Shown here: positions 3,770 through 64,000 of the stretch, piece after piece
How positions within the stretch are numbered: the stretch's first letter is position 1
Layout: each line of letters starts with the position of its first letter
Source: Chitinophagaceae bacterium
GTDB lineage: Bacteria > Bacteroidota > Bacteroidia > Chitinophagales > Chitinophagaceae
NCBI GenBank assembly: GCA_022841365.1
Contig: JALHRP010000004.1
Location: 48,106-112,105, forward strand
Length of the DNA stretch: 64,000 nucleotides
Direction: 5' to 3'
Translations under genes and position numbers: made by a program
The notes under the pieces: generated by a model
The model's database searches: none
Told to the model about the DNA's origin: nothing
Seen by the model: only the letters and a program-made list of their open reading frames with translations

Positions 3770-5305
3770 TTAATATCCAAAATTCTGCACCATATTAGGA
3801 TTGGCATCTAATTCACGTGTAGGAATATTTGCCAGCACTCTGAAATCGTTATAGAGCAGCGTAGAATAATGAGGAGCTTTTGCAATATCAACTCCACGAC
3901 GTTTGAGATCGAAAAAGCGATGACCTTCAAAAGCCAGCTCAATTCTGCGTTGCTTTATAATCTCGTTAAACAAAGCAGTTCCGGTTAAAGCATTATCAAA
4001 TGCCTGTTGCGTAGTAGCATAGTTTGAATATCTGTTTTGCTTAATGCGGATCAGATCATTACGTGCAGCTGCTTCATCAAATACAGGTGATCCGGGTGTG
4101 GCCATTGCTTCAGCACGGTTCAGGTATAATTCAGCAACACGGATCAAAGGAATATTATCCAGGTTCTGGATACCGCTTTTACCTAAGTATTTGGTACACT
4201 CAACACGTGCAGTACCACGACCGGGAGAACCCTGCTCATATAACAGGTTACGCACATCATCAGATCTTGATGTGATGACCCCACCGGCATAGTTTGCAGT
4301 TGTGATGTTAATACCAAGGTCTCCAAGTAAAGTTAAGCTTGGCACTAAATCTCCGAATCCACCTAATACACCATTATTACCGGGGATAACCAATGTGGTA
4401 AAGCTGGTTTGCAGTGATTCATTTACCCCGATATTTTCAGCAGGGTTAATCAAACGCAATTCAAAAATGGACTCAGGGTTAATGGCTGTTCTCCATCCGT
4501 TTACATAAGCAGAACTGCTCATTAAACGACTTCCTGTTGCTGCAATTGCCAGATCAGCATATGTTTTACAGGTTGCATAATCTTTACGATATAATGCAAC
4601 TCTTGAAAACAAGGCCTGTGCTGCAGATAATGTAGCTAACTGCGGATATGATGTAGAAGCAAACGTAGCTGTTAACTGTGTAGTAGCTGCAGTTAAATCT
4701 CTGTAAATCTGAGCGTAAACAGAGTCAACCTTATCTCGTGAAGGAATGTTCTGAGAAGCGCCTGCAGTTGTAGTTGGAGTTGTTAATACTACAGGAACAC
4801 CACCTCTGTCTAAACCTAATACAGCTACACCCGGCTCGTAAGCATAGGCTCTTGCTAAATCAAAATAACAAAGTGCACGCAGAAATTTTAACTGACCTTC
4901 CCAGTTGTTGCGTTCTGCTGGTGTAACCGCAGGTGCAACATTCAGTGAAGGAATTGCTGCAAGGATCAGATTGATATTTGCAATAGCAAAATAATCCTGC
5001 TGCCAGTTAGCAAAATGTGCGGTGGCAATATTCTGCGCTTCTGCATTTAAACGACCTGATTTGTTGGTTGCAAAACCATTATCAGATAATGCTTCGGGAT
5101 GTGTGATTAAATCACGACCGTATAAGCGGTTGTTTTTTAAACGGGCATAGATACCTAAAATCGCTGCATTCACATTCTCCCTTGAGGTTAATGCAGTGTT
5201 TAGATCAATTGATTGACGTGGCTCAATTTCCAGTTGCTTGTTACAGCTGGTAAATGTGGCAATAAACGTCAGCAATAAACCCGGTATAATTAATAGTTTC
5301 TTCAT
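3770..5305 (-). CDS. susD: RagB/SusD family nutrient-uptake outer membrane lipoprotein
   Basis: Lipobox (ATFTSC). SusD-like motifs are present: ELYLNRAEAMA and QRRIELAFEGHRFFDLKRRG. It lies directly downstream of the SusC-type receptor. Confidence 0.9.
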   Translation of the reverse strand: MKKLLIIPGLLLTFIATFTSCNKQLEIEPRQSIDLNTALTSRENVNAAILGIYARLKNNRLYGRDLITHPEALSDNGFATNKSGRLNAEAQNIATAHFANWQQDYFAIANINLILAAIPSLNVAPAVTPAERNNWEGQLKFLRALCYFDLARAYAYEPGVAVLGLDRGGVPVVLTTPTTTAGASQNIPSRDKVDSVYAQIYRDLTAATTQLTATFASTSYPQLATLSAAQALFSRVALYRKDYATCKTYADLAIAATGSRLMSSSAYVNGWRTAINPESIFELRLINPAENIGVNESLQTSFTTLVIPGNNGVLGGFGDLVPSLTLLGDLGINITTANYAGGVITSRSDDVRNLLYEQGSPGRGTARVECTKYLGKSGIQNLDNIPLIRVAELYLNRAEAMATPGSPVFDEAAARNDLIRIKQNRYSNYATTQQAFDNALTGTALFNEIIKQRRIELAFEGHRFFDLKRRGVDIAKAPHYSTLLYNDFRVLANIPTRELDANPNMVQNFGY

Positions 5306-5322
5306 GTTTCTGTTTTTATGCT

Positions 5323-8300
5323 TTAAAATCCAATTTGAATACCTGCATTAAAGTTTTTCGTTTGAGGAATGATACCTGTTGATGTACCCACAAACTCAGG
5401 ATCGTATCCTAACCAGTCAGAATAAGTAAAGAGGTTTTGCCCCTGAACATATAAACGGAGATTAGTGAGTTTCAACTTACGTAACAGGCCTTGTGAAAAG
5501 TCGTAAGACAAACGAACATCTCTTAAGCGGATAAAATCAGCTTTCTTCCATAAGCGGCTTGAACCGATTGCATGGTTGTTACCACCGGGTTCTGCACCAC
5601 CATTAAAGAATCTTGGATAAGATGTAATGTCACCAGGTTTTTCCCATGCGTTATCATAAGCAACCTGCAGTGTATTGAACGTACGGTTGGCATTCTCAAT
5701 CAAAAAGTTTACCTGACCGTCTGTTGCAAGCACACCATACTGATAAGTGAATAACGCATCAATTGTAAAGCCTTTAAAGCTGATGGTATTGGTAATACCT
5801 CCCCACTGATCTGCTTCACCATCGCCAATGTAGCGGCGGTCACGTACCTGAGGGGCATAAGTAATATTTCCAAACGTATCAACCCACATCGGGCGACCTG
5901 TTGCAGGGTTTACACCGGCATATACCTGCGTAACAATGCTGTTAATTGAGCGACCTACACGGAATGAAGGATCTCCGGGTAATTGCTGTAATCCATCATA
6001 AATCTTCTTCACGTTGTTGTAAGCAAACGAGAAGTTGAAATTAACGTTCCAACGGAAACCATCACTGGTTTTAGGACGGAAGATTTCAGCATTTAAACCT
6101 ACTTCAACACCTTTAATTTCCAGTTCTCCAATGTTTTCAACATAGTTGTCTACACCATTCACCCAGGTCACAGGACGTGGTAATAATAAATCTAATGAAC
6201 GGCGCTGATATACTTCCACAGAACCACTGATGCGGTTGCTGAGTATACCATAATCTAAACCAAGGTTAATGGTTTGGTTTCTTTCCCAACGCAGATTGGG
6301 GTTACCTAAGTTGGTATAACCAATGGCAGCAGCCTGATTGTATTGACCGGCACCACCTACAAGTGATAAGGCATCAAAGTTGCCGATCTGATCGTTTCCT
6401 GTCTGGCCATAAGAACCACGCAGACGGAGTGTGCTGATCCAGTTTACATCCTGCAGGAACTTTTCGTTATCCATATTCCAGCTGGCAATAATACCGGGGA
6501 ACCAACCAAAACGGTTGTTGGCACCAAAACGGCTTGAACCATCACGACGAACAATCAGTGACAATGAATATTTGTTATCAAATGAATAGTTTACACGACC
6601 AAAGATACCGGCACGCTTGTATCCGGTCCAGAACTGTCCTACCGATTCAGCTGTTGCTGCGGCGTTAATAGTTGTAAACTGGAATGAAGGGAAACCAATA
6701 CCTGCACCGGTAATTGACTCCTGCACATCTCTGCGGTACTCAACACCAACAACTCCATCAATACGGTTTTTGGTAAATGATTTATTGAAGTTTAATGTTT
6801 GAGTTGTCAGGAAGTTGGTATTCCAGTCACTTTCAACACTACCACGACCACGAACACCAAAACCATCATTGGTTCTTGGGTCACGATACAGGTTACCCTG
6901 TACCAAGCGGTAATCAAGCGCATAAAAAGAACGGAAGGTTAACCAGGGTGCAAACTTATATTCACCTGTAATTGATCCAACCAATTGATTGGTTTTCTGA
7001 TAACCTGAGTTAAAATCGTTTACTGCAATAACGTTCTGATTTAATACACCGGCTAATGCTTGTGCTGGTGGTAAACCAAAATAGGTTCCGTCAGGATTAC
7101 GAACAGGGTTTACAGGAAGAATCAATGAACTTGAAAAGATCGGGCTTCCAAGAAAAGAACCACTTACACCAAACGGAAGTTGTTGCTCAAAGCTGCTCAC
7201 ACTGAGTTTTGAAGTAAGGGTTAATTTATCGGTTGCTTTGTGCGTAATATCTGTGTTCAGCGTGTAACGCTTAAAGTCTACTTTATTAATAATTGTGCTC
7301 TGGTAGCTGTAAGAAGCACCCAGATAAAAAGTAGTCTTGTCATTACCACCACTCATGTTCAGATCATAGTTCTGGATGGTACCTCTTTTAATTGCAAGGT
7401 CTTGCCAGTTGTATGTTGGTAAAACTGCAATCATCGAATCTACCTGCTTTTCAGTAAACGCATTGGTAGTTGCAGTTGGTACACCGGTAGCATTTGCTAA
7501 CTCACCTAAAACGGAACGCTTGGCGTTGAGCATGGTATAACCGGCAGTTGTATTAATGCTGTTATTAAAAAAAGCCATTGCTCTTGCGTTGATGTATTCC
7601 TGTGTGTTTAATACATCAAACTTCTTAATAGGCTGCGCAGAACCTAAGTAAGCATTGAAGTTGAACTTGGTTTTGCCCGACTTACCTTTCTTGGTTGTAA
7701 TGAGAACAACACCGTTAGAAGCCTGTGCACCATAAATGGCAGCACTTGCAGCATCTTTCAATACATCAATTGACTCAATGTCGTTTGGATTTAAAAATGC
7801 AAGCGGGTTGTTTTGTGTAAAGTTACCATCGTTGCTGGTATTCATCTGTACACCATCTACGATGTACAAAGGCTGGTTACCTGCAAGGTAAGAACCTGTA
7901 CCACGGATACGAACGTTAATAGCACCACCGGGGATACCATTGTTTGCCTGTACCAATACGCCGGCAGCACGACCCTGCAATGCACGGTCAACTGATGCGT
8001 TTGGCAGGTTGGCAATTTCTTTTCCTTTTACGGAAGAAATGGCACCACCTTCATCTCTTTTTTTACGTTGCTGATAACCTACTACCACAACTTCCTGCAG
8101 ATCTTTATCTGCTGAAGCAAGTGATACATTGAAGCTGGCACGGTTGCCGATTGATACTTCAACATTGCTGTAGTTTACAAATGAAAACACCAGGGTTTTT
8201 GCAGTGGATGGAACGCTTAATTTAAACGATCCGTCTGCACCCGTGGTAGTACCTGTACTGGTACCTTTAACTGTAACGGATACGCCCGGTAAAGGGCTGC

Positions 8301-8403
8301 CGTCTTTCTCATCTGTTACCTTACCGGTAACAGTCTTGTCCTGTGCAAATACGTGCAGTGTGCACAATAAAAGCAGGGACATCATGCTTACAAGTTTTCT
8401 CAT
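5323..8403 (-). CDS. susC: SusC/RagA family TonB-linked outer membrane receptor
   Basis: The start was moved to the internal M (MRKLVSMMSLLLLCTLHVFAQ signal peptide). It has a carboxypeptidase-regulatory-like domain (GKVTDEKDGSPLPGVSVTVKGTSTGTTTGADGSFKL). The plug motif is IESIDVLKDAASAAIYGAQASNGVVLITTKKG and the barrel ends ...NAGIQIGF. There is no STN/anti-sigma extension. Confidence 0.9.
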   Translation of the reverse strand: MRKLVSMMSLLLLCTLHVFAQDKTVTGKVTDEKDGSPLPGVSVTVKGTSTGTTTGADGSFKLSVPSTAKTLVFSFVNYSNVEVSIGNRASFNVSLASADKDLQEVVVVGYQQRKKRDEGGAISSVKGKEIANLPNASVDRALQGRAAGVLVQANNGIPGGAINVRIRGTGSYLAGNQPLYIVDGVQMNTSNDGNFTQNNPLAFLNPNDIESIDVLKDAASAAIYGAQASNGVVLITTKKGKSGKTKFNFNAYLGSAQPIKKFDVLNTQEYINARAMAFFNNSINTTAGYTMLNAKRSVLGELANATGVPTATTNAFTEKQVDSMIAVLPTYNWQDLAIKRGTIQNYDLNMSGGNDKTTFYLGASYSYQSTIINKVDFKRYTLNTDITHKATDKLTLTSKLSVSSFEQQLPFGVSGSFLGSPIFSSSLILPVNPVRNPDGTYFGLPPAQALAGVLNQNVIAVNDFNSGYQKTNQLVGSITGEYKFAPWLTFRSFYALDYRLVQGNLYRDPRTNDGFGVRGRGSVESDWNTNFLTTQTLNFNKSFTKNRIDGVVGVEYRRDVQESITGAGIGFPSFQFTTINAAATAESVGQFWTGYKRAGIFGRVNYSFDNKYSLSLIVRRDGSSRFGANNRFGWFPGIIASWNMDNEKFLQDVNWISTLRLRGSYGQTGNDQIGNFDALSLVGGAGQYNQAAAIGYTNLGNPNLRWERNQTINLGLDYGILSNRISGSVEVYQRRSLDLLLPRPVTWVNGVDNYVENIGELEIKGVEVGLNAEIFRPKTSDGFRWNVNFNFSFAYNNVKKIYDGLQQLPGDPSFRVGRSINSIVTQVYAGVNPATGRPMWVDTFGNITYAPQVRDRRYIGDGEADQWGGITNTISFKGFTIDALFTYQYGVLATDGQVNFLIENANRTFNTLQVAYDNAWEKPGDITSYPRFFNGGAEPGGNNHAIGSSRLWKKADFIRLRDVRLSYDFSQGLLRKLKLTNLRLYVQGQNLFTYSDWLGYDPEFVGTSTGIIPQTKNFNAGIQIGF

Positions 8404-11124: not shown

Positions 11125-13425
11125 ATGTTTCAGAAACTTTTTTTATCAGGTCTTTTTGGTTTCATTTATTTCTCTGCTGCTGCTCAGTTAACAGGTATTG
11201 GTCAGTGGCGGGAGCATATGGAATATAAATCCGGTCTGCGTGTTACACTTTCGGCCGATCATGTATTTACTGCATCCAATTACGGCGCATATGCTGTAAG
11301 CAGAAGCGAGGGCGAAATTGAACGGCTGAGTAAAGTAACGGGATTAAATGATGTGGGAATCAGCGCCATCAAATACAATTCATTCAACAGTAAACTGGTG
11401 ATTGCATATACCAACAGCAATCTGGATATTATTTACCGCAACGATATAATTAACCTCCCCGATATTCTCCGAAGCAATGTAAGCGGCGATAAAAAAATTT
11501 ATGACATCAGCTTTCTCAACAACAAAGCCTATCTCAGCACCGGACTTGGTGTTATTGTAGTTGATTTAGAGAAATACGAAATAAGCGGCACATACTTTAT
11601 TGGCAACACCGGTGGCAATGTGAAAGTGAATGGGTTTGCAGATGATGCAACACGTTTCTATGCAGCTACTGAAGAAGGATTAAAAGCTGCCAATCAAAAT
11701 GCGGCGAACCTAAGTGATTACCGTAACTGGTCTTTATTAAGTGGCGCAAATGGTTTGCCGCAGGGTCCGGTTAAACAGGTGATGGTTATTCAAAATACAA
11801 TCGTTGTTCAATATTTTACATCGTTGTATGCATTGAACGGGAATACATGGCAGTTAATTTATAACGATGACTGGCGATGGGAAAATGTAAATGCAAGTGA
11901 CGGCACCATTCTTATTTGCGAAGAAAAGAATTCATGGAACGAACGAAGAGTGTTATTGCTGAATGTAAATGGTTCTATTAACCGCATCGTTCAAAACAAT
12001 AATGAACTGAGGTATCCTTTTCAGGCAGTAAAAAGTGGTAACGAAATATGGATTGCCGATTTTGATAAAGGTCTGGTGAAAGCTGAGGCCAGTCTCTTTG
12101 AGCGATACGCTATTAATTCGCCGTATGGGCGTTTAGATGGAGACATGTTGTTTTATAAAAACAAATTGTACGTTGCCGGTGGTAGTGTAAATGAAGACTG
12201 GAATTATCAGTACAACGGTACCGGTTTTTTCAGTTTTGAAAACAATGAATGGAAAGATTTTAACCGTACCAATCTTTCGTGGATGGATACGGTGCTGGAT
12301 GTAATCAGCATTGCTGTTGATCCACGCAACAATACTGTTTATGCAGGATCTTTTGGTGGTGGTTTGATTGAGTTTGAAACTGCAACCAAATATAAAATTT
12401 TCAAACAGGGGTCGCCGTTGAATGTAGCTGTTGGTGATCCCAACAATTACCGTGTTGGCGGTTTGGCCTTTGATGCTGAGAACAATCTCTGGATCAGCAA
12501 TTTTGCCGGCAGTAATAATTTTCTTGTAAAAAAAGCAGATGGTAACTGGCGAAGTTTTCGTGTGCCCTTTTTAATCAGGGATAATATGGTTGGTGCTATT
12601 GTAATTGATGATGCCAATCAAAAGTGGATACAGGTTCCGCAGGGAAACGGATTGCTTTGTTACAATCATGGTGCTTCTATTGATAATGCAGGAGACGATC
12701 GTTGGAAATGGTTTCAAACAGGAAGAGGCAATGGAAACCTGCCCAGCAACTTTGTAAACTGTTTGGTAAAAGATAAAGATGGATTTATCTGGTTAGGAAC
12801 AGATAAAGGCATTGCTATTATTCAATGTCCGGCCGAAGTGTTTACAGCCAATGGATGCGAAGCATTTCAACCCATTGTACAGCAGGATAATTTTGCCGGC
12901 TTCTTATTTGAAAATGAAGAAGTGCGTGCTTTAGCAGTGGATGGTGCAAATCGCAAATGGGTGGGTACACGCAATGGTGTTTGGCTTATTAGTGCAGATG
13001 GTGAAAAAGTAGTTCAACGTTTTACTGCAGAAAACAGTCCGCTGTTGAGTAATGAAATTATACGCATTGCCATTGATCCGCAAAGTGGCGAAGTATTCTT
13101 TTCTACATTCAATGGTATCTGCAGCTATCGCAGCACTGCAACAGAAGCAAATGAAACAAAAGATCAGGTGATTGTGTTTCCCAGTCCGGTGCCAGCGGGT
13201 TATAATGGAATGATTGGCATACGTGGATTACCGGAGAATTCAATTGTAAAAATTACAGAACTCAACGGACGATTGGTTTATCAAACAAGATCATTAGGTG
13301 GACAAGCAGTATGGAATGGAAAAGATTATAATAATCAACGTGTATCAAGCGGCGTATATCTTGTACTGGCAAAAAATGAAACGGGTATAGAAAAAAATGT
13401 GGGCAAGATCGTGTTCATCAAATAA
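11125..13425 (+). CDS. Beta-propeller protein with T9SS C-terminal sorting domain (PorZ-like)
   Basis: Signal peptide (FSAAAQ). It has repeated two-component-regulator-propeller type motifs (NNLWISNFAG, GFIWLGTDKGIAI, NRKWVGTRNGVWLI). The C-terminal approx. 80 aa is a T9SS CTD (VFPSPV...ITELNGRLV...GVYLVLAKNE...GKIVFIK). Confidence 0.7.
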   Translation: MFQKLFLSGLFGFIYFSAAAQLTGIGQWREHMEYKSGLRVTLSADHVFTASNYGAYAVSRSEGEIERLSKVTGLNDVGISAIKYNSFNSKLVIAYTNSNLDIIYRNDIINLPDILRSNVSGDKKIYDISFLNNKAYLSTGLGVIVVDLEKYEISGTYFIGNTGGNVKVNGFADDATRFYAATEEGLKAANQNAANLSDYRNWSLLSGANGLPQGPVKQVMVIQNTIVVQYFTSLYALNGNTWQLIYNDDWRWENVNASDGTILICEEKNSWNERRVLLLNVNGSINRIVQNNNELRYPFQAVKSGNEIWIADFDKGLVKAEASLFERYAINSPYGRLDGDMLFYKNKLYVAGGSVNEDWNYQYNGTGFFSFENNEWKDFNRTNLSWMDTVLDVISIAVDPRNNTVYAGSFGGGLIEFETATKYKIFKQGSPLNVAVGDPNNYRVGGLAFDAENNLWISNFAGSNNFLVKKADGNWRSFRVPFLIRDNMVGAIVIDDANQKWIQVPQGNGLLCYNHGASIDNAGDDRWKWFQTGRGNGNLPSNFVNCLVKDKDGFIWLGTDKGIAIIQCPAEVFTANGCEAFQPIVQQDNFAGFLFENEEVRALAVDGANRKWVGTRNGVWLISADGEKVVQRFTAENSPLLSNEIIRIAIDPQSGEVFFSTFNGICSYRSTATEANETKDQVIVFPSPVPAGYNGMIGIRGLPENSIVKITELNGRLVYQTRSLGGQAVWNGKDYNNQRVSSGVYLVLAKNETGIEKNVGKIVFIK

Positions 13426-16734: not shown

Positions 16735-17313
16735 ATGTTTGAACAGCTATTTAATCTCGTAAAAGAACAGGCAGGTGCTGCCATTATTCAGAACCCTGAT
16801 ATTCCGAATGAGCGAAACGATGAAGCAATCGGAGAAGTAACCAATAGTGTAACCAACGGTTTACAAAATGCAATATCCGGCGGGCAATTTAAAGATGTAC
16901 TGAAGCTGCTGGGCGGTCAGGGGGGCGATGTACAGAACAATCCTTTAGCCAGCCAGTTATCCGGTAACGCAGTGAGTTCATTAATGGAAAAATTTGGATT
17001 GAATCAGGGGCAGGCAGGTAATATTGTAAGTAATCTGTTACCCGGCGTTTTAAAAAATCTTATTTCAAAAACAAATAACCCTGCAGACAGCAGTTTCGAT
17101 TTACAGGGCATCTTCAGTTCATTAACCGGTGGAAAAACAGGCGGACTGGATATTCAGGGCCTTCTTGGAAAAGTTACACAAGGCGGACTTGATAAAGATG
17201 GTGATGGTGATACAGATTTTAATGATGTGATTAATATGGTGAAAGGCGGTGCAGCTCAGTCTAAAGGCGGCGGAGGAATGATGGATATGGTAAAGGGTTT
17301 ATTTGGTTCATAA
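16735..17313 (+). CDS. Gly/Asn-rich hypothetical protein (DUF937-like), with an EF-hand-like DKDGDGDTD loop
   Basis: The ORF is clean and has its own terminator. Repeated L..LLGG / FGLNQGQAGNIVSNLLPGVL segments are present. The family assignment is tentative. Confidence 0.6.
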   Translation: MFEQLFNLVKEQAGAAIIQNPDIPNERNDEAIGEVTNSVTNGLQNAISGGQFKDVLKLLGGQGGDVQNNPLASQLSGNAVSSLMEKFGLNQGQAGNIVSNLLPGVLKNLISKTNNPADSSFDLQGIFSSLTGGKTGGLDIQGLLGKVTQGGLDKDGDGDTDFNDVINMVKGGAAQSKGGGGMMDMVKGLFGS

Positions 17314-17336: not shown

Positions 17337-17371
17337 ATCCCGGTCTGCTTTTGCTGATCGGGATTTTTTTT
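17337..17371 (+). terminator. Intrinsic terminator of the 16735-17313 gene
   Basis: ATCCCGGTC-tgcttttgct-GATCGGGAT forms a 9-bp stem with one G-T pair. It is followed by T8. Confidence 0.7.
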
Positions 17372-17564
17372 CGATTGAGAGAGGTTACGGAAATGTTCGT
17401 GGTATAAAAATAAGCACACGGAAAGCTGTTGGCATGGTTTTGGAAAGTGCTGTTATACGATTAAAGATGTTGAAAGGAAGCAAATTGGTTTTAGAAAGTT
17501 TTAACAGAAGGCAGGTAAACTTTGGAATCGGTTTTGCGTCTTAATAGTATAAAGTTTGAAAGCA

Positions 17565-17627
17565 GTCAATTTTCTCATAAGCAGTTAGTTTTGGTTACGG
17601 TCTCCCGATTCTTCGGGAGACCCTTTT
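17565..17627 (+). ncRNA. Candidate small RNA, copy 1 (27-nt shared core plus intrinsic terminator)
   Basis: The core TTTTCTCATAAGCAGTTAGTTTTGGTT spans 17570-17596. It is followed by GGTCTCCCG-attctt-CGGGAGACC and then CTTTT. A near -7 box (AAAGTTTG, 17551-17558) lies 11 nt upstream of the core. Confidence 0.35.
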
Positions 17628-17729
17628 AAAAAAACCGAAAAAGTTGAAAGAAAGGTTTGCAGAACATTAACAGGACGTGAACCTTGCACACAGGAAGATT
17701 AAACGAACTTTGTATAACAAATTTGAATT

Positions 17730-17794
17730 TACTTTTTTCTCATAAGCAGTTAGTTTTGGTTTCGACCCCGGTTTCCACCGGGGTCTCTTTTTTT
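17730..17794 (+). ncRNA. Candidate small RNA, copy 2 (same 27-nt core, different terminator stem)
   Basis: The identical core spans 17735-17761. It is followed by GACCCCGG-tttcca-CCGGGGTC and then TCTTTTTTT. A near -7 box (CAAATTTG, 17718-17725) lies upstream. The 3' part overlaps the last codons of the VanZ-like CDS on the other strand. Confidence 0.35.
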
Positions 17795-18166
17795 CAGGAG
17801 AAAATACAACCAGGCAAGGCATGCTCCAATTGCATCTGCAAGCATATCCCACACATCAAAATCTCTGTCAACCCACAGTTGAACATACTCCATTAAAATG
17901 CCATAACCACAGGAAATGAATACTGCTCCTGCAAGGGCAATCCTGAATACAGAAACGGGACGATCTTTTGATTGAAGGTAGTACCCCCACAATACAACCT
18001 GAATTCCAAATAAGAGGGCGTGAATAAATTTATCAAGATGTGTTATTTCAAATTGTTTCTCTTTTGCTATGCTGATGGGAGGTATAACCAGCAATAAAAA
18101 AATAATGACCGACCAAATAATGACCGGCCATTTTGTTGCAAAATATGCTTGTAATTGTTTAATCAT
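17750..18166 (-). CDS. VanZ-like family membrane protein
   Basis: 138 aa with four TM helices. A DKFIHALLFG motif is typical of VanZ-like proteins. Its start overlaps the gcvH stop by 1 nt. Confidence 0.7.
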   Translation of the reverse strand: MIKQLQAYFATKWPVIIWSVIIFLLLVIPPISIAKEKQFEITHLDKFIHALLFGIQVVLWGYYLQSKDRPVSVFRIALAGAVFISCGYGILMEYVQLWVDRDFDVWDMLADAIGACLAWLYFLLKKRDPGGNRGRNQN

Positions 18167-19600: not shown

Positions 19601-19817
19601 AAGAGCGCAAAGATAAGCCGATAGCCGGTAGTCATCAGCCGTTCGTAAAAAGCAGTCATCGAATCTGCAATTTACTAACGGCCATCCGCTACCGACTTTC
19701 TTCTAAAGTTCGGCCGCATTTTTGCAAAGAGGGAGTTGAATTTTATTCTATCCGTTTATAAAATGATTTCCCCTGATGCCAGCGGGATTGTATTTTCACC
19801 ATCTAAACCTGGAATAC

Positions 19818-20819
19818 ATGTTAAAAACTGCAGAAGACATTAAAATCCTGAATGAAAAAATTCAATATGCAGGTGCTTTCTTAGACAGACTGCGGGATGA
19901 AGTAAGCAAAGTGCTGGTAGGGCAACAACATATGATAGATCGTTTGCTCGTTGGACTTTTAGGCAATGGTCATATTTTGCTTGAAGGTGTACCCGGTCTT
20001 GCAAAAACCCTCGCCATCAAAACACTTTCACAGGCAATTAATGCAAAATTCAGCCGTATACAATTTACACCCGACATGTTGCCGGCCGATGTAATCGGTA
20101 CCATGATCTATAATCAACAGAAGAATGAATTTTTTGTACGTCGTGGACCCATCTTTGCCAATTTTGTTTTGGCCGATGAAATAAACCGTGCCCCCGCCAA
20201 AGTACAGAGTGCATTGCTGGAATCAATGCAGGAGCGGCAGGTAACCATTGGTGAGCACACCTATAAATTAGATGAACCCTTCCTCGTTTTGGCTACTCAA
20301 AATCCATTGGAGCAGGAAGGCACTTATCCGTTACCGGAAGCACAACAGGATCGTTTTATGTTAAAGGTGGTGATTGATTATCCAAAGAAAGAAGAAGAGT
20401 TGCTGATCATTCGTCAAAATACACAGCAGATAGCATCACCAACCATCAACCCGGTTGTTACCATGCGTGAAGTTATGGAAGCAAGAGATCTTGCACGTAC
20501 GATTTACATGGATGATAAAATTGAAAATTATATTCTGGATATTGTTTTTGCCACACGTAAACCGGAACAGTTTGGTTTAGGAAGTTTAAAACCATTGTTG
20601 GCATATGGCGGTTCGCCCAGAGCATCCATTAATATGGCGTTAGCAGCAAAAGCAGTTGCTTTCTTACACAAAAGAGGATATGTGTTACCGGAAGATGTGC
20701 GTATGATTGCAGCCGATGTGTTGCGTCATCGCATTGGGTTAACCTATGAAGCAGAAGCAGAAAATGTTTCAGTAGAAGAAATTATTAAGCAGGTGTTGAA
20801 TGCGGTTAAAGTACCGTAA
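19818..20819 (+). CDS. MoxR-family AAA+ ATPase
   Basis: Walker A (GVPGLAKT), Walker B/sensor region (LADEINRAPAKVQSALLESMQE) and GSPRASI. The start was trimmed to MLKTAEDIK. Confidence 0.9.
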   Translation: MLKTAEDIKILNEKIQYAGAFLDRLRDEVSKVLVGQQHMIDRLLVGLLGNGHILLEGVPGLAKTLAIKTLSQAINAKFSRIQFTPDMLPADVIGTMIYNQQKNEFFVRRGPIFANFVLADEINRAPAKVQSALLESMQERQVTIGEHTYKLDEPFLVLATQNPLEQEGTYPLPEAQQDRFMLKVVIDYPKKEEELLIIRQNTQQIASPTINPVVTMREVMEARDLARTIYMDDKIENYILDIVFATRKPEQFGLGSLKPLLAYGGSPRASINMALAAKAVAFLHKRGYVLPEDVRMIAADVLRHRIGLTYEAEAENVSVEEIIKQVLNAVKVP

Positions 20820-20890
20820 GCCCCCTAACACACTGAAAGGGGAATGAATTTGCATTATTCAACTTAGAACTTTAAAACTCAGAACTCCTT

Positions 20891-21763
20891 TTGTTAACTA
20901 CAGAAGAAATATTAAAAAAAGTTAGAGCACTTGAAATAAAAAGCAAGCGGCTCACCAATCATATGTTCACCGGAGAATATCATTCGGCGTTCAAGGGTCA
21001 GGGTATGAGTTATAAAGAAGTGAGAGAATATCAGCCCGGTGATGATATCCGTTTTATTGACTGGAATGTAAGTGCACGCTATGCACATCCTTACAGCAAA
21101 GTATTTGAAGAAGAAAGAGAGTTAAGTTTATTCTTACTCATTGATAACAGTGCCAGCATCAGTTTTGGTACTCATCTGCAACGCAAAAAAGATCTGGTTA
21201 CAGAACTGTCGGCCATCCTTGCTTTTTCTGCTGTGAACAATAACGATAAAGTAGGTGCTATTCTGTTTGGTGATAAAGTACAGAAGTTTATTGCTCCTAA
21301 AAAAGCCAAACAGCATACGCTTTATATTGTACGTGAAATGCTCACCAATGATGCAAAATCAAAGAAAACAAATTATGCAGATGCATTCCGTATGTTTAAT
21401 AATGTGTGCAGGCGCAGAAGTATATGTTTTATGATCAGTGATTTTTTAGGCACAGGTTACGAAGAGGCATTACGTGTTGCAAGCCGCAAACATGATGTAA
21501 TCGGAATTAAAATTTATGATCAGCTTGATATGAAGCTGCCGGATGCAGGCTTGCTGCAGGTAGCAGATGCAGAAAGCGGAGAACAGCGGTGGATTGACAG
21601 CTCCAGTGCATTGGTTCGCTTTGAATACGAAAAAGATTTTCACAAGCATAACGATTATGTAAAAGATGTGTTTCGACGTGCAGGTGCTGATCTGCTGCAT
21701 ATGCGTGCAGGCGATGATTATGTAAAAGTGTTACAGAAATTTTTTATCAACCGGAGTAAATGA
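20891..21763 (+). CDS. DUF58 domain protein (MoxR partner)
   Basis: It has the DDIRFIDWNVSAR motif and a VWA-like body. The start is non-ATG (TTG) and the stop overlaps the next gene (ATGA). Confidence 0.85.
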   Translation: MLTTEEILKKVRALEIKSKRLTNHMFTGEYHSAFKGQGMSYKEVREYQPGDDIRFIDWNVSARYAHPYSKVFEEERELSLFLLIDNSASISFGTHLQRKKDLVTELSAILAFSAVNNNDKVGAILFGDKVQKFIAPKKAKQHTLYIVREMLTNDAKSKKTNYADAFRMFNNVCRRRSICFMISDFLGTGYEEALRVASRKHDVIGIKIYDQLDMKLPDAGLLQVADAESGEQRWIDSSSALVRFEYEKDFHKHNDYVKDVFRRAGADLLHMRAGDDYVKVLQKFFINRSK

Positions 21764-22656
21764 TCAGACAGGGTATTGTTATATTGATTGGTTTATCAGT
21801 TATATGCATGAATTCCGTTGCACAGATTACACCTGTGATTACATCAGCAAAAGAAAAAGTACTGATCGGTGAACCGCTGAAACTGAAATTAGAACTCAAA
21901 GCAATTGATCGTAATGCAACTGTACAATGGAAAATACCCGACAGTATTCCGCACTTCGAATTTGTAAGCTATGATACCAGTGATTTGTTTAAACGGGAGA
22001 TAACCGTCACCAGTTTTGATAGCGGCTTATGGGTGATTGAAAATATTGCAGTGATTGTTCCTTCTAATGTTAATGATAAACCACAGTTGCTCAGGTTTCC
22101 TCCAAAAGAAATACTGGTAGAGTATGATACAACGGGCAATCAGTTGTTGAATGATGTAAAACCTATTATTGAAGTAAATGCTGCAGAACAATGGATTGGC
22201 TATGCCATTGCTGCCCTGGCTTTACTCAGTTTAATTGTGCTCGTCATCTTATTCAGACGATGGAAGAAGAAACAACAGAAACTCATTACTGAAGAAGATT
22301 CAAAGTATACTGCACTGGAAGAATTTCAACTGGTGATTGAAAAACTGAAACAACAAAGCTGGAGTACGCAGTTGGAACAGAAGCAACATTTTTCTGAGTT
22401 ATCACATGCGGTTAAACGTTATTTTGAACGGCGCCTCCGTGAACCACTCACCAGGTTAACAACAGATGAAACGATGTTGCAGCTGAAACCTTATTTAGTA
22501 AACGACCGTTTAATTGCAATTACACAGGTATTTCGTTTGGGCGATGCGGTGAAGTTTGCAAAATTTACAGCCGATCAACAGGATTGCATTAATGCCGTGC
22601 AGGATATGGAGGTGATTGTAAAAAAATCTGAAACAGAATTACAGGCAAATGATTAA
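21760..22656 (+). CDS. Single-pass membrane protein of the Bat-type operon (periplasmic beta-rich domain + TM + DUF4381-like tail)
   Basis: Signal peptide, one TM helix (WIGYAIAALALLSLIVLVILF) and a C-terminal helical region ending RLGDAVKFAKF. It sits between the DUF58 gene and batA. Confidence 0.65.
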   Translation: MIRQGIVILIGLSVICMNSVAQITPVITSAKEKVLIGEPLKLKLELKAIDRNATVQWKIPDSIPHFEFVSYDTSDLFKREITVTSFDSGLWVIENIAVIVPSNVNDKPQLLRFPPKEILVEYDTTGNQLLNDVKPIIEVNAAEQWIGYAIAALALLSLIVLVILFRRWKKKQQKLITEEDSKYTALEEFQLVIEKLKQQSWSTQLEQKQHFSELSHAVKRYFERRLREPLTRLTTDETMLQLKPYLVNDRLIAITQVFRLGDAVKFAKFTADQQDCINAVQDMEVIVKKSETELQAND

Positions 22657-23653
22657 CGAATGGTATCAACAAATTGTATTTGCTTATCCATATCTTTTAT
22701 GGCTGTTAATACTGTTGCCCTTACTGATTGTGTGGTATCTGTTTAAAAATAAAACAGCCAGCTCTTCCATTACCATTTCAACATTACGGATTTATAAACG
22801 GCACGGCGGATCAAAAACGGTTATTCGTCATCTTCCGTTTGTATTAAGGTTATTGGCAATAGCGTTGTTGATTGTTGCCATTGCCCGTCCGCAAACAAGA
22901 AGTAACGAGGAACGTATAGAAGGAGAGGGCATTGATATTGTTTTATGTATGGATGTAAGCGGCAGTATGCTGGCAGAAGATTTTGCACCCAACCGCATGG
23001 AAGCCATGAAAAAAGTGGCAGCAGATTTTGTTGATGCAAGAAAAACAGACCGTATCGGCTTGGTCATTTTTTCCGGTGAACCATTTACGCAATGTCCCAT
23101 TACAACAGATCATGCTGCACTCAAAAGTCAGATTTATGCTGTAAGAAGCGGTATACTGCAGGATGGTACCGCTATTGGCTCCGGTTTGGCAACAAGCGTT
23201 GAGCGCTTAAAGAAAAGTAAGTCGAAAAGTAAAGTAGTGATTCTTTTAACGGATGGTGAAAACAATGGCGGTTTAATACCTCCCAGCACTGCAAAAGAAA
23301 TTGCCAAAGCATACAATATTAAAGTGTACACCATTGGTATGGGAACAGACGGGTTTGCAACGCTGCCCCAGCAAACCACAGCAGGCGTGGTGCGTACAAA
23401 AGAAAAAGTAAACATTGATGAAAAGCTGTTGCAGGAAATTGCCCGGGAAACCGGCGGCAGTTATTTCCGTGCAAAGGATAATGAAAGTCTGGCAAATGTT
23501 TATGTTGAAATTGATCAACTGGAAAAATCAAAAATAGAAACCAGCAGTTTTGCCCGTTATGCAGAACAGTTTTATCCGTTAGCTATAGCAGCAGTTTTAT
23601 TGTTACTGATTGAAGTGTGGCTGCGGTATAAAGTGTTGAGAAAATTCCCTTAA
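22649..23653 (+). CDS. batA: VWA-domain membrane protein, BatA-like
   Basis: N-terminal TM pair, MIDAS motif (DIVLCMDVSGSM), VILLTDGENN and a C-terminal TM helix. Confidence 0.85.
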   Translation: MINEWYQQIVFAYPYLLWLLILLPLLIVWYLFKNKTASSSITISTLRIYKRHGGSKTVIRHLPFVLRLLAIALLIVAIARPQTRSNEERIEGEGIDIVLCMDVSGSMLAEDFAPNRMEAMKKVAADFVDARKTDRIGLVIFSGEPFTQCPITTDHAALKSQIYAVRSGILQDGTAIGSGLATSVERLKKSKSKSKVVILLTDGENNGGLIPPSTAKEIAKAYNIKVYTIGMGTDGFATLPQQTTAGVVRTKEKVNIDEKLLQEIARETGGSYFRAKDNESLANVYVEIDQLEKSKIETSSFARYAEQFYPLAIAAVLLLLIEVWLRYKVLRKFP

Positions 23654-58025: not shown

Positions 58026-58044
58026 AACTCTTTAATGACTAAAT

Positions 58045-58079
58045 AAAAAAGTCGTCCCGCATAAGCAGGACGACTTTTT
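58045..58079. terminator. Bidirectional intrinsic terminator
   Basis: AAAAAAGTCGTCC-cgcataagca-GGACGACTTTTT. Confidence 0.75.
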
Positions 58080-58095
58080 AATATCTTTTAAGAAA

Positions 58096-58293
58096 TTAAT
58101 CCCAGCCCTTCTTGGCGGTTCCGGCTTTAATAGCAGCCAAAGCTTTTTCTTCGCCTAACAAAGCCGTCAACTTATTACCTTTTCCATCATCACCTTTGGC
58201 AATATATCCACCTTTAGCAGTACGCTCTACAACTGCATTCTGGATAGGAACATTCTTTTCTTTCGTTTTTACGTTATACGCTGTTAACTGCAT
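58096..58293 (-). CDS. Small Lys-rich hypothetical protein (65 aa)
   Basis: A clean ORF flanked by a terminator. It lies immediately downstream of gyrB on the same strand. Confidence 0.55.
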   Translation of the reverse strand: MQLTAYNVKTKEKNVPIQNAVVERTAKGGYIAKGDDGKGNKLTALLGEEKALAAIKAGTAKKGWD

Positions 58294-58497
58294 AGTTCAA
58301 TAATTTTTGGGGGTTAGATAATATTCCCGGCTGTCCGGCTTGGTTTAAAAGTACAGATTTTCCCCAAAACTGGTCGAAAATGCTTTCCACAGTAGCTTTA
58401 TCGTTGAAAATCAAATACTAAAGAGCGTAATGAACGGTTGAACAGGCAGTTTTCTCAACTGATTTTTACCCGTAAAACCTATACAACCTGTTGTTAT

Positions 58498-61687: not shown

Positions 61688-61812
61688 GAACACCGTAAGT
61701 AATTTCCTTTGGATCACTCTCTTTCCGTTTTGCGTAAATGCTTTTTCTATATCCGTAACTCATCCTGCACATCCTGATTGATATTTGCACCCTAATGAAA
61801 TTGGAAATAAAC

Positions 61813-64000
61813 ATGAACAGAATTTTTAGTACCCTTTGCCTGGCAATAGCAGCATTACAAGCAAACGCTCAGCAGGATTCAACAAAGACAGACAGCAGCC
61901 GTCTTCATACCAAATATTTATCCGACATCACAGTAGTAGGCCGAAACAGTCGTGCCGATGTGCACTTCTTACCTGAAATTGTTGGCGTGAATATCAATGC
62001 AGGTAAAAAGAACTCGTTAATTGTGGTAGATAATGTGCAGGGAAATGTAGTTACCAACACCATGCGACAGGTGGTAGCAAAAATTCCCGGAATTCAGATT
62101 TGGGAAAGTGATGGCAGCGGTATTCAGATTGGTATTGCAGCAAGAGGGTTAAGCCCTAACCGCAGTTGGGAATTCAACACCAGACAAAACGGATACGATA
62201 TAGCCGCAGATCCATATGGTTATCCGGAAGCATATTACAATCCGCAGTTACAGGCCGTGCAGAGGATTGAAATTGTAAGAGGACATGGATCATTACAATA
62301 CGGTCCGCAGTTTGGCGGCATGGTAAATTATATATTACGTAACGGCAGTGAGATCAATAAAACGTTTGAGTTTGAAACACAACAAACGATTGGAAGCAAC
62401 GGCATGTTTAACAGTTACAACGCTATAGGTGGCGAAACGAAAAAGTTTCACTACTATGGTTTCTTTGATCACCGTAATGCAGATGGATACAGACAAAACA
62501 GCCGCTATTATAACAATTCAGGCTTTGGAACATTTACGTACCGCTTTACTGATAAATTTTCTGTGACTGCAGAATTGATGCGCAGTAATATGCGCAGTCA
62601 GCAATCGGGTGGATTAACAGATGCACAGTTGAAGCAGGATATTAAACAAAGTTTCCGCAGCCGCAACTGGTTTGATGTTACCTGGACAACTGCCGCACTT
62701 ATCAGCAATTATACTTTCAGTGAAACATCACGGTTGAATGTGAAATTATTTGCTGTACATGGCGATCGTAACAGTGTTGGTTTCATGCCATCGGCAGGGA
62801 TTATTGTAAAAGATACCATCAACAAAACCACCAATCAATACAATACCCGTAACCTCAATGAAGATGATTACAGGAACTATGGTTTGGAGGTACGCTACCT
62901 CGGTGCATACAAACTGGGTAAAATGAATAACTCATTTTCAGTTGGCGGCCGGTTGTACAAAGGCACAACATTGCGTTATGCTGCAGATGGAAAAGGAAGC
63001 ACCGGAACTGATTATGATATGACTGTGAGTGATGGCATCTGGACGAGAGATATTGATTTCAACACAGTGAATGCAGCACTGCATGCAGAAAATATTTTCA
63101 GAGTTTCTGAAAAGCTGATTGTCATTCCCGGTGTACGATATGAATATATTACCGGACAGGCGAGTGGCCGCAACGGTTTCAGCGGAGGGAATGAAGTGTT
63201 GCTGCAAAATCAAAAGCGCAGCCGCGGATTTGTGCTTGCAGGGATTGGAGCAGAATATCATGTAACCTCAATGACTGAAGTATATGCAAATATTACACAG
63301 GCTTACCGCCCCGTTCAGTTTGCAGATTTAACTGCACCTCCTACAACCGACGAAGTTGATCAGAATATTAAAGATGCAAAAGGATACAATGCTGATTTAG
63401 GTTATCGTGGACGTTTTAAATCTTTTCTATTTTTTGATGTAAGTGCATTTTATCTGCAATACAATAACCGTATCGGCACTATTGCACAGCAACGTACGGA
63501 TGGAAGTTTTTATAACTACCGCACTAATGTGGGCAACAGCACAAGCAAAGGAATTGAAGCCTTGATTGAATTTAGTCCGGTAAAAGCAATCACTGAAAAA
63601 TCAACATGGGGCGATATTCAACTGTTTGTTTCTTACGGTTACACCGATGCACGATATGGTAATTTTAAAGTGATTACAAAGAACAGCAACAATCAGTTGG
63701 TAGAAAGCAATCTCCAAAATAAGAAAGTAGAAAATGCACCTGAGCATATTGTAAGAAACGGATTAACCTATGCTTTCAAAGGATTTTCGTTTACCACACA
63801 GGTAAGTTATGTGAGTGATGCATTTGCTGATGCAAACAATACAGTGGCTGCAACAGCCAATGCACAAAACGGAATCATACCTTCTTACACTGTAACTGAT
63901 TTAACTGCAACATACCGTTTCAGTAAAAAACTGAACATCAGAGCAGGTGTAAACAATCTTACCAATGAAAAATACTTTACACGTCGTGCAGGTGGTTATC
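61813..64000 (+). CDS. TonB-dependent (siderophore-type) outer membrane receptor, 3' end outside the window
   Basis: Hand translation is open from ATG 61813 to the window end. It starts with MNRIFSTLCLAIAALQANAQ (signal peptide). The plug region is VQGNVVTNTMRQVVAKIPGIQIWESDGSGIQIGIAARGLSP...RIEIVRGHGSLQYGPQFGGMVNY. A late barrel motif reads NNLTNEKYFTRRAGGY. It is absent from the ORF track only because no stop codon is reached. Confidence 0.85.
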   Translation, partial: MNRIFSTLCLAIAALQANAQQDSTKTDSSRLHTKYLSDITVVGRNSRADVHFLPEIVGVNINAGKKNSLIVVDNVQGNVVTNTMRQVVAKIPGIQIWESDGSGIQIGIAARGLSPNRSWEFNTRQNGYDIAADPYGYPEAYYNPQLQAVQRIEIVRGHGSLQYGPQFGGMVNYILRNGSEINKTFEFETQQTIGSNGMFNSYNAIGGETKKFHYYGFFDHRNADGYRQNSRYYNNSGFGTFTYRFTDKFSVTAELMRSNMRSQQSGGLTDAQLKQDIKQSFRSRNWFDVTWTTAALISNYTFSETSRLNVKLFAVHGDRNSVGFMPSAGIIVKDTINKTTNQYNTRNLNEDDYRNYGLEVRYLGAYKLGKMNNSFSVGGRLYKGTTLRYAADGKGSTGTDYDMTVSDGIWTRDIDFNTVNAALHAENIFRVSEKLIVIPGVRYEYITGQASGRNGFSGGNEVLLQNQKRSRGFVLAGIGAEYHVTSMTEVYANITQAYRPVQFADLTAPPTTDEVDQNIKDAKGYNADLGYRGRFKSFLFFDVSAFYLQYNNRIGTIAQQRTDGSFYNYRTNVGNSTSKGIEALIEFSPVKAITEKSTWGDIQLFVSYGYTDARYGNFKVITKNSNNQLVESNLQNKKVENAPEHIVRNGLTYAFKGFSFTTQVSYVSDAFADANNTVAATANAQNGIIPSYTVTDLTATYRFSKKLNIRAGVNNLTNEKYFTRRAGGY

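Follow-up and report, generated by a model that had tools for sequence, protein, structure and literature searches.

The described systems closest to the element studied here are the small RNAs (sRNAs) transcribed with sigma-54, such as Qrr1-5 of Vibrio, and the FopS and GibS sRNAs of Bacteroides. To our knowledge, Bacteroidota lack the classical RNA chaperones Hfq and ProQ, and RNA regulation in this phylum outside the gut Bacteroides is almost unexplored. FopS sRNAs of Bacteroides pair close to the start codons of SusC-like transporters and thereby repress them (PMC11697453). The sigma-54 regulon of Flavobacterium psychrophilum, marked by a -24/-12 motif, covers protein quality control, envelope stress and gliding (PMC9723704). 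Here, we analyze 64,000 nucleotides (nt) of a Chitinophagaceae bacterium (contig JALHRP010000004.1, positions 48,106 to 112,105; hereafter the window), in which a non-coding interval between a plus-strand gene and a convergent vanZ-family gene carries the same 27-mer twice. We consider it likely, on comparative grounds, that this interval holds two tandem paralogous genes of an apparently undescribed sRNA family that is conserved throughout Chitinophagaceae. Each gene, read on the plus strand, has a 5' leader that varies, a core of about 27 nt (UUUUCUCAUAAGCAGUUAGUUUUGGUU) that is invariant and has no predicted pairing, and an intrinsic terminator.

A candidate RNA family of the Chitinophagaceae

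The two exact copies of the 27-mer (TTTTCTCATAAGCAGTTAGTTTTGGTT) lie 165 nt apart on the plus strand (Table 1). The repeat extends to 30 nt with one mismatch. The 27-mer has no third match at up to three mismatches in the 64 kb, its expected number of chance occurrences is 0, and none of 100 dinucleotide shuffles contained any match. As had been predicted from the sequence of the window, each copy is followed by a different hairpin, perfect and GC-rich, and by a T-run: GGTCTCCCGA/TCGGGAGACC (17599-17622), then C-TTTT-A7, for the first, and GACCCCGGT/ACCGGGGTC (17764-17785), then TC-T7, for the second. Both have the features of intrinsic terminators. With two copies in 64 kb, a syntenic position and one copy per 8-kb locus, the repeat does not resemble dispersed repeats such as miniature inverted-repeat transposable elements or repetitive extragenic palindromes.

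A scan of one genome per species with the exact central 21-mer (CTCATAAGCAGTTAGTTTTGG) gave at least 120 loci, in the genomes of at least 120 species, all of them Chitinophagaceae by record title. The carriers include Ferruginibacter, Sediminibacterium, Terrimonas, Niabella, Niastella, Puia, Hanamia, Flavisolibacter, Flavihumibacter, Dinghuibacter and others, among them the type strains Terrimonas ferruginea DSM 30193, Sediminibacterium salmoneum NBRC 103935, Niabella drilacis DSM 25811, Hanamia caeni BO-59 and Flavihumibacter petaseus NBRC 106054. A hairpin and a T-run follow 3' of the 21-mer, on the same strand, in every one of these loci. In an alignment of 120 sequences, 97.4% of the cells of the nine-pair terminator stem are paired. 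All nine pairs show compensatory changes, the observed covariation was reached by none of 500 column shuffles, and pairing collapsed when the partner column was slid by one to three positions. Conservation of at least 90% was also found for four bases 5' of the 21-mer, for one base 3' of it and for the hairpin loop UUUCYA (columns 43-48 of the alignment, with T43, T44, T45, C46 and A48 at this level). Terminator loops are normally free of sequence constraint. The loop, (G)UUUC(U/C)A(C), is conserved at this level in host and phage copies alike despite the freely covarying stem; copy 1 of the window deviates (UUCU).

One point tells against taking the core's invariance in the 120 genome loci as evidence, namely that these were picked by the exact 21-mer and the invariance there is by construction. 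Relatives were therefore sought through the VanZ protein alone, which gave a core-independent sample of 11 metagenomic loci whose VanZ is 39-62% identical. We described the core plus terminator of the family by a covariance model, R1, and 10 of the 11 VanZ-picked loci have an R1 match of at least 66 bits at the 3' end of vanZ. The exact 21-mer is present in 16 of the 17 copies whose core is on the contig, the exception being copy 1 of L123, where one A is missing. Seven of the loci (L123, L124, L125, L128, L129, L130 and L131) have the tandem pair, with copies 149-180 nt apart; two others (L126, L127) are cut by the contig end, and the more distant L132 has a single copy. Flanking protein genes of the window are about 66-76% identical in DNA to the best of the collected loci, none of them a close relative (prfA at most 76%), and the RNA segments are 87-100% identical. 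Since the RNA is far better kept than the flanking genes, the core is under very strong purifying selection, and the tandem pair is an old and maintained duplication. The original prediction had proposed two paralogous plus-strand sRNA genes with a conserved core and with terminators that diverged but stayed intact; the spread over at least 120 species, the covariation and the seven tandem relatives all back it.

R1 finds only the two copies in the window (85.6 and 72.8 bits, the next match having 17.5 bits). Elsewhere, it finds one copy per 8-kb locus in 100 loci searched, except for a weak second match in L003. Weak extra matches, in L003 (7167-7228, minus strand, 28.4 bits) and in L124 (3309-3371, minus strand, 26.2 bits), are perhaps additional RNA copies that have diverged or are decaying. 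The 4227 models of Rfam 15 have no match in the whole window at gathering thresholds, and permissive settings gave, in this region, only sub-threshold matches driven by terminators, e.g., PsrR1 (22.8 versus 42 bits) and PrrF (20.7 versus 90 bits). The literature that we searched holds no description of the RNA or of its sequence.

The folding of the RNA is simple. Taken by itself, the core has no predicted structure (-0.8 kcal/mol, z = 0), as the original prediction expected, and the terminator is the sole stable element of the modelled transcripts. The fold of L074 suggests a helix in which a 5' half-repeat pairs with the core's 3' end; it was rejected, as the flanks show no supporting co-variation. 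The plus strand of the core has stops in two of the three frames, and in the commonest family type the third has a TAA four codons upstream with no start codon in between. No conserved small open reading frame (ORF), as expected of a type I toxin-antitoxin module, was found on either strand. We also considered guide RNAs of the dCas12f/TnpB type, which have a long scaffold and a 3' guide and are encoded beside dcas12f-rpoE or tnpB (PMC13472631). They were rejected because the neighbors here are prfA, a DUF937-like gene, vanZ and gcvH, and because an invariant part is followed by a terminator and not by a variable guide.

Candidate promoters of the family and of the two copies

Promoters of the sigma-54 type read TGGCAC-N5-TTGCW, in which exactly 10 nt separate GG from GC, and lie about 12 nt before the start; sigma-A promoters of Bacteroidota have TTTG at -33 and TAnnTTTG at -7, the latter about 5-8 nt before the start. 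Within 130 nt upstream of the core, 71 of the 121 copies match TGGCA-N5-TTTGC at 9 or more of 10 positions, compared with 0.4% of control windows of 130 nt. The commonest pattern is TTAACA-N16-TGGCA-N5-TTTGC. The TTAACA element lies exactly 16 nt upstream of TGGCA (TTAAC 21-22 nt upstream) in 65 of 77 family promoters and was observed in 59 of 68 cases with 3.2 expected (z = 31.8); often, TTTA(A/G)A lies a further 11 nt upstream. A matrix of the whole promoter matched 67 times in 0.97 Mb of collected sequence, each time at an sRNA gene; as it was trained on the same promoters these matches are circular, and what informs is the lack of any other match. In most cases, 34-58 nt separate the C of the GC element from CTCAT, which predicts family RNAs of about 78-103 nt. 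We regard the family as one of terminator-capped bacterial sRNAs that are probably driven by sigma-54 in most members. The PM2 promoter motif of Bacteroides, which is near-palindromic and has -10/-30 elements, was also considered and is not comparable.

In copy 1 of the window, TTAACA is followed after 16 nt by TGGAAT (17523-17528) and, after 5 nt more, by TTTGC (17533-17537), the sole zero-mismatch match to TTAACA-N16-TGG-N8-TTGC in the window. This copy would start near 17549 from a sigma-54-type -24/-12 promoter and give an RNA of about 80 nt. Copy 2 has kept TTAACA and lost both the spacer and the -24 element, leaving GG-N11-GC only. The clade shares the block CGAnCTTT(G/A), represented in the window by CGAACTTTG, at a fixed distance from this TTAACA; it is a near match to TAnnTTTG in which the first base has changed from T to G. 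Terminator 1 has, throughout the clade, a short tract of 4-6 U followed by A's, so that read-through into copy 2 is possible. Copy 2 could hence be made either from its own promoter (the CGAACTTTG box, with a start near 17719) or through read-through of terminator 1. Promoter type seems to vary among siblings, and the difference between copy 1 and copy 2 suggests that the two are probably regulated differently.

These elements replace the promoter details of the original prediction, which had placed -7 boxes just before the cores (17551-17558 and 17718-17725) and deduced transcripts of 60-65 nt. These boxes, each with one mismatch, are not conserved in the closest relatives, and a match of that quality is expected by chance every 200 nt or so. 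The conserved promoter signals lie further upstream, and the predicted transcripts are thus about 75-80 nt long. The pieces near 17436 and 17487 that had been taken for decayed additional copies do exist, as the pair TGGTTTTGGAAAGT / TGGTTTTAGAAAGT at 17435/17486, and are better described as conserved blocks of the promoter region than as relics of further copies. One conserved block (TTGGCATGGTTTTGGAAAG) precedes the TTAACA element by about 55 nt and might be a site for an activator or another -24/-12-like element whose spacing is off by one.

Several observations weigh against a general role of sigma-54. The -24 element of copy 1 is TGGAAT and not TGGCA. Within the clade, GG is present in the window, L130, L125 and L128 and absent from L124, L129 and L131, i.e., from three of the six distinct relatives that cover it, although TTAACA and TTT(A/T)GCGTCT remain conserved. 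In the family as a whole, 43 of the 121 members have no good -24/-12 motif, and some of them have TAnnTTTG-like boxes instead. Neither rpoN nor an enhancer-binding protein gene was found in the annotated regions of the window, the genome itself not having been searched for them. The 5' ends and the sizes of the RNAs, as well as the independent transcription of copy 2, are predictions. Given the deviant or absent GG, the dependence of copy 1 on sigma-54 in the clade of the window seems only moderately likely.

Phage copies, possible targets and rival explanations

The exact 21-mer was also found in 23 viral contigs of IMG/VR (L134-L156), all of which match R1 end to end with 51-87 bits. In L136, L137 and L147, a tyrosine integrase (Pfam PF00589) is encoded beside the module, and identity begins exactly at CTCAT. 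One viral contig of 48 kb has two direct copies that share 26 nt (L147 and L149), with the integrase beside one of them, which looks like the attL/attR signature of integration in the RNA gene. In other viral copies, T-run and core come 5-10 nt after the stop of a phage gene on the same strand. The upstream gene in L138 and L144 encodes a portal of the lambda family, then comes a prohead-protease/capsid gene; further viral contigs have structural or unannotated proteins upstream of the module, an endolysin gene ends 82 nt upstream in L143, and a large terminase gene is near the copy of L148. In 14 of the 23 viral copies, the core starts no more than 17 nt from the end of a same-strand ORF; in bacteria, such an ORF ends within 40 nt of the core in 2 of 121 copies. 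We found no integrase homologue near the 120 bacterial copies, and the window does not have the layout of an attachment (att) site, with its cores 165 nt apart and no integrase nearby. Hence, phages of Chitinophagaceae appear to use the RNA gene for integration and also carry their own copies of core plus terminator, laid out like the sRNAs made from mRNA 3' ends.

What the RNAs do may be suggested by the core. Its CUCAU is complementary to AUGAG, and UUUUCUCAU can form a perfect duplex with AUGAGAAAA, a Met-Arg-Lys start that is typical of signal-peptide and TonB-dependent-receptor genes. Among the collected sequences, the ORFs that start with ATGAGAA mostly encode signal-peptide proteins, many of them TonB-dependent-receptor-like, and one such receptor-like gene is a syntenic neighbor about 2.5 kb away in six loci. 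In the mechanism that we propose, the exposed core would base-pair with translation-initiation regions through the anti-AUG CUCAU and block initiation. We hold this start-codon occlusion tentatively, at somewhat less than an even chance, and the narrower proposal that the targets are mRNAs for exported proteins is doubtful. The window also contains a SusD/SusC-like gene pair (3770-8403, minus strand), of which the SusC-like gene (5323-8403) starts with CCUAAAACGAGU-AUGAGAAAA. This start can pair with both ends of the core (-15.3 kcal/mol), the second-best value of 49, which is not significant alone.

Other results do not favor pairing at start codons. Duplex energies of the core with 49 start regions of the window and 849 of the loci were no better than those of shuffled cores, and, of the complementary 7-mers, only the generic ATGAGAA was enriched there. 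Near-complements of the core in 0.9 Mb of collected sequence were limited to the sRNA genes themselves and to a same-sense coincidence inside serS. In addition, 27 invariant nt and a conserved terminator loop are more than a base-pairing seed normally needs, and this excess of conservation hints at a protein partner. The main idea of the original prediction holds, with action in trans as a putative part of it, and its promoter and size details need replacing.

A protein partner leads to an alternative explanation, in which core plus terminator is not a base-pairing seed. It would instead be a protein-binding platform or sponge, or a 3'-end module for stability or termination: the free-standing host RNA would titrate a factor that phage mRNAs ending in the module would recruit. 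This would account for an invariant core and a conserved loop beside stems that covary, for the lack of a detectable mRNA target among the start regions of the window and loci, and for phage modules placed just after the stops of unrelated genes (portal, structural), as expected of a transferable 3'-end module. Proteins with RRM domains such as RbpB are known to bind sRNAs of Bacteroidota (PMC11697453). On the other hand, the RNAs have one or one-and-a-half cores each and no repeated short motif of the CsrB/CrcZ kind, no candidate protein is linked in the neighborhood, and base-pairing sRNAs from mRNA 3' ends would look alike in phages. We regard this alternative as unlikely.

The RNAs could also act mainly in cis, antisense to the 3' end of the convergent gcvH-vanZ transcript. 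In 51 of the 121 loci vanZ is the immediate convergent neighbor, with its stop in the T-run, the hairpin or the core, 11-57 from the core start. The overlap of vanZ with the second module, part of the original prediction, is indeed present: the ORF (Pfam VanZ) crosses hairpin 2 into core 2 and ends in ...DPGGNRGRNQN*, and in the window and at least seven other genomes the tail NRGRNQN* is encoded antisense to the RNA. This position antisense to terminator and core suggests that the peptide tail is fixed by constraint on the RNA. Because the hairpin has no T-run on the minus strand, vanZ transcripts may extend across the core. Yet over half of the family members are located elsewhere and have no antisense gene, neither copy 1 nor the phage copies are paired with a vanZ gene, and the overlap is of variable length and seems to be a side effect of terminator sharing. 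We consider a main action in cis very unlikely.

The origin of the tandem pair admits another reading, as the scar of an integrated element that has since been deleted. Copy 1 would be attL-like (host 5' part and imported terminator) and copy 2 attR-like (imported upstream DNA and original terminator). The use of the RNA gene as an att site in viral contigs (L147/L149, L136, L137) speaks for it, and so does the composition of the copies. Copy 1 has kept the ancestral promoter region and the 5' half-repeat AAAGCAGTCAA, and its hairpin is specific to the clade, within which stem 1 covaries (GGTCTCCCGA, GGTCCCGG, GGCCCTGA, GGCCTCCTGA). Copy 2 has kept the family-typical terminator beside vanZ and has a different upstream region. 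However, the two units share, as originally predicted, the blocks GTTGAAAG(G/A)AAG (17468/17642) and TTAACAG (17501/17667), together with GGTTT and TTGC, and this favors duplication of the whole gene followed by complementary divergence. Moreover, blocks of the spacer are kept throughout a deep clade (vanZ 43-62% identical), which indicates selection, none of the 120 bacterial copies has an integrase nearby, and a scar would explain the origin of the pair and not its present function. We give this scenario a low probability. The half-repeat of copy 1 could possibly be a second seed; about 27 of the 121 family members have AGCAGTCAA at this position.

The last alternative, already raised in the original prediction, takes the copies for relics of duplicated 5' ends of minus-strand genes, as the minus strand reads AACTGCTT-ATG-AGAAAA like a leader with a start codon, and its probability is practically nil, being refuted by the short ORFs from that ATG (median 12 amino acids, 30 or more in 11 of 121), by the variable leader/promoter sequence past it and by the covarying hairpin and T-run, which fit the plus strand only.

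If the two genes are indeed trans-acting sRNAs, one can speculate that a sigma-54 stress regulon of Chitinophagaceae has this RNA as its post-transcriptional arm. The invariant anti-start-codon core would shut down the synthesis of exported proteins and TonB-dependent receptors, and phages would exploit the RNA by integration and by their own copies at the 3' ends of late genes. We think this combined picture quite unlikely. If true, the late-gene copies of phages might remove receptors or remodel the envelope, and the RNA would be a family-wide regulator that hosts and phages share, in a phylum lacking both Hfq and ProQ. The RNA is perfectly conserved over a family that is ecologically abundant in soil, freshwater and activated sludge. 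Its presence in cultured type strains makes expression, regulon and targets directly testable. R1 provides a ready covariance model for genome annotation, and the RNA gene is a new candidate integration site for prophage prediction.

The locus, its surroundings and comparison with known systems

Table 1. Features of the interval between the DUF937-like and vanZ-family genes, in positions of the window
Feature	Position	Strand	Basis or remark
Terminator of the upstream gene: hairpin and T8	17338-17371	+	Read from the sequence; weak terminator-only R1 match at 17339-17377
Conserved upstream block TTGGCATGGTTTTGGAAAG	17429-17447	+	In 6 of 6 clade sequences reaching that far (window and 5 relatives)
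Upstream promoter element, copy 1: TTTAGAAAG-TT-TTAACA (TTAACA at 17501-17506)	17490-17506	+	Invariant in the clade
Sigma-54-type -24/-12 element, copy 1: TGGAATCGGTTTTGC (GG-N10-GC)	17523-17537	+	9/10 match to TGGCA-N5-TTTGC
Predicted sRNA copy 1, about 80 nt, inferred 5' end	17549-17627	+	Promoter geometry; R1 match at 17566-17637, 72.8 bits
5' half-repeat AAAGCAGTCAA, copy 1 only	17559-17569	+	Resembles the core part AAGCAGTTAG; conserved in the clade
Core 1, TTTTCTCATAAGCAGTTAGTTTTGGTT	17570-17596	+	Exact repeat; predicted unstructured
Terminator 1: 10-bp stem, loop TTCT, C-TTTT	17599-17627	+	Stem covaries within the clade
TTAACA of copy 2	17667-17672	+	Invariant in 9 of 9 clade sequences
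CGAACTTTG, candidate -7 box of copy 2	17704-17712	+	Exactly 31 nt after TTAACA in 9 of 9 clade sequences; promoter role inferred
Predicted sRNA copy 2, about 75 nt, inferred 5' end	17719-17794	+	R1 match at 17731-17801, 85.6 bits
Core 2, identical to core 1	17735-17761	+	Exact repeat
Terminator 2: 9-bp stem, loop TTCC, TC-T7; family-typical, loop UUUCYA	17764-17794	+	Family alignment
vanZ-family gene, last of the minus-strand run with gcvH	17750-18166	-	Last 12 codons and stop antisense to terminator 2 and core 2

The interval is flanked on its upstream side by a plus-strand gene (16735-17313, 192 amino acids) with a weak DUF937 match, below the curated Pfam cut-off, and this gene has its own terminator, as was predicted. 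Beyond it lie prfA, an amidohydrolase gene and recO; on the other side, gcvH and a cyclophilin gene come after vanZ on the minus strand. Exact matches to the DUF937-like protein were limited to two contigs of 1 kb, and PrfA had none. In the family, the commonest order is prfA, sometimes a DUF937-like gene, the RNA and a converging vanZ, often with a pair of genes for an extracytoplasmic function sigma factor and its anti-sigma factor before gcvH. Counted per locus, the neighbors are VanZ (52), PrfA (45), GcvH (44) and the DUF937-like protein (29). The ancestral location of the RNA has prfA, in some cases together with the DUF937-like gene, on one side and the convergent vanZ-gcvH on the other. 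Other copies adjoin tatC, a large glycosyltransferase gene, histidine kinase genes or a radical-SAM gene, and no enhancer-binding or RNA-binding protein is linked to the RNA in the neighborhoods of the family loci.

Some other features of the window are worth recording. The interval, a gap of 436 bp, had been described as its longest non-coding stretch; in a map of ORFs of at least 90 amino acids, positions 58026-58497, between convergent genes, form a longer one (472 bp), with a terminator-like hairpin on the minus strand (58036-58100). A GC hairpin between convergent genes at 2112-2165 (AGCCCCCGC...GCGGGGGCT) scores as a terminator with R1 (17.4 and 16.8 bits on the two strands) and is probably a bidirectional terminator. 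On the plus strand, genes for a MoxR-like ATPase, a DUF58 protein and BatA/VWA proteins (19776-23653) look like an operon of the Bacteroides-aerotolerance (Bat) type, and a PorZ-like component of type IX secretion (Pfam PorZ_N_b_propeller) is encoded at 11125-13425. An open frame of at least 747 codons (61758-64000, plus strand) runs off the window end, so this region is coding and not empty.

Among known systems, Qrr1-5 of Vibrio (RF00378) and the sigma-54 sRNAs GlmY, CrcZ and NrsZ resemble the RNAs described here: they are short and terminator-capped, the genomes of some lineages hold several siblings, a long stretch does not vary over the whole family, and most members have a -24/-12 type promoter. 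As with GlmY/GlmZ (PMC3045617), promoter type seems to differ between siblings and species. There is no homology to Qrr in sequence or structure: the lone Qrr match in the region is a sub-threshold one to a terminator elsewhere (16.9 versus 50 bits). The present family also belongs to a different phylum, without known Hfq, its sigma-54 dependence is predicted, and it has a fixed TTAACA 16 nt upstream of the -24 element in place of distant enhancer sites.

The phage copies recall two further systems. As in tRNA, tmRNA and sRNA genes that serve as integration sites, a putative prophage is bordered by a 26-nt direct repeat that covers the RNA gene's 3' part, with a tyrosine integrase beside the repeat, and the phage copy supplies a replacement terminator. 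In contrast to such sites, many phage copies are not beside integrases and follow portal, endolysin or structural genes instead, and the window has no integrase nearby. The layout of these copies, with a stop codon, a conserved seed and a terminator, is that of sRNAs from mRNA 3' ends (CpxQ, MicL, DapZ), whereas the bacterial copies, including both in the window, are free-standing.

FopS and GibS of Bacteroides (PMC11697453, PMC7366714) belong to the same phylum and are similar in size (about 65-70, up to about 100 nt), in their conserved single-stranded seed with an intrinsic terminator, and in having paralogous copies, including copies in a phage. Their sequences are unrelated to the present family: the 5' region of FopS (GUAUUAGAUUUAAGGUUAACAAA, deduced from the Northern probe AWO-590) has no similarity to the core. 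FopS has its seed at the extreme 5' end, is transcribed from sigma-ABfr promoters and is confined to Bacteroidaceae, whereas the core of the present family abuts the terminator and the family is confined to Chitinophagaceae. Still, FopS and GibS act at the start-codon regions of mRNAs for SusC-like outer-membrane transporters, which is the mechanism that we propose for the Chitinophagaceae RNAs.

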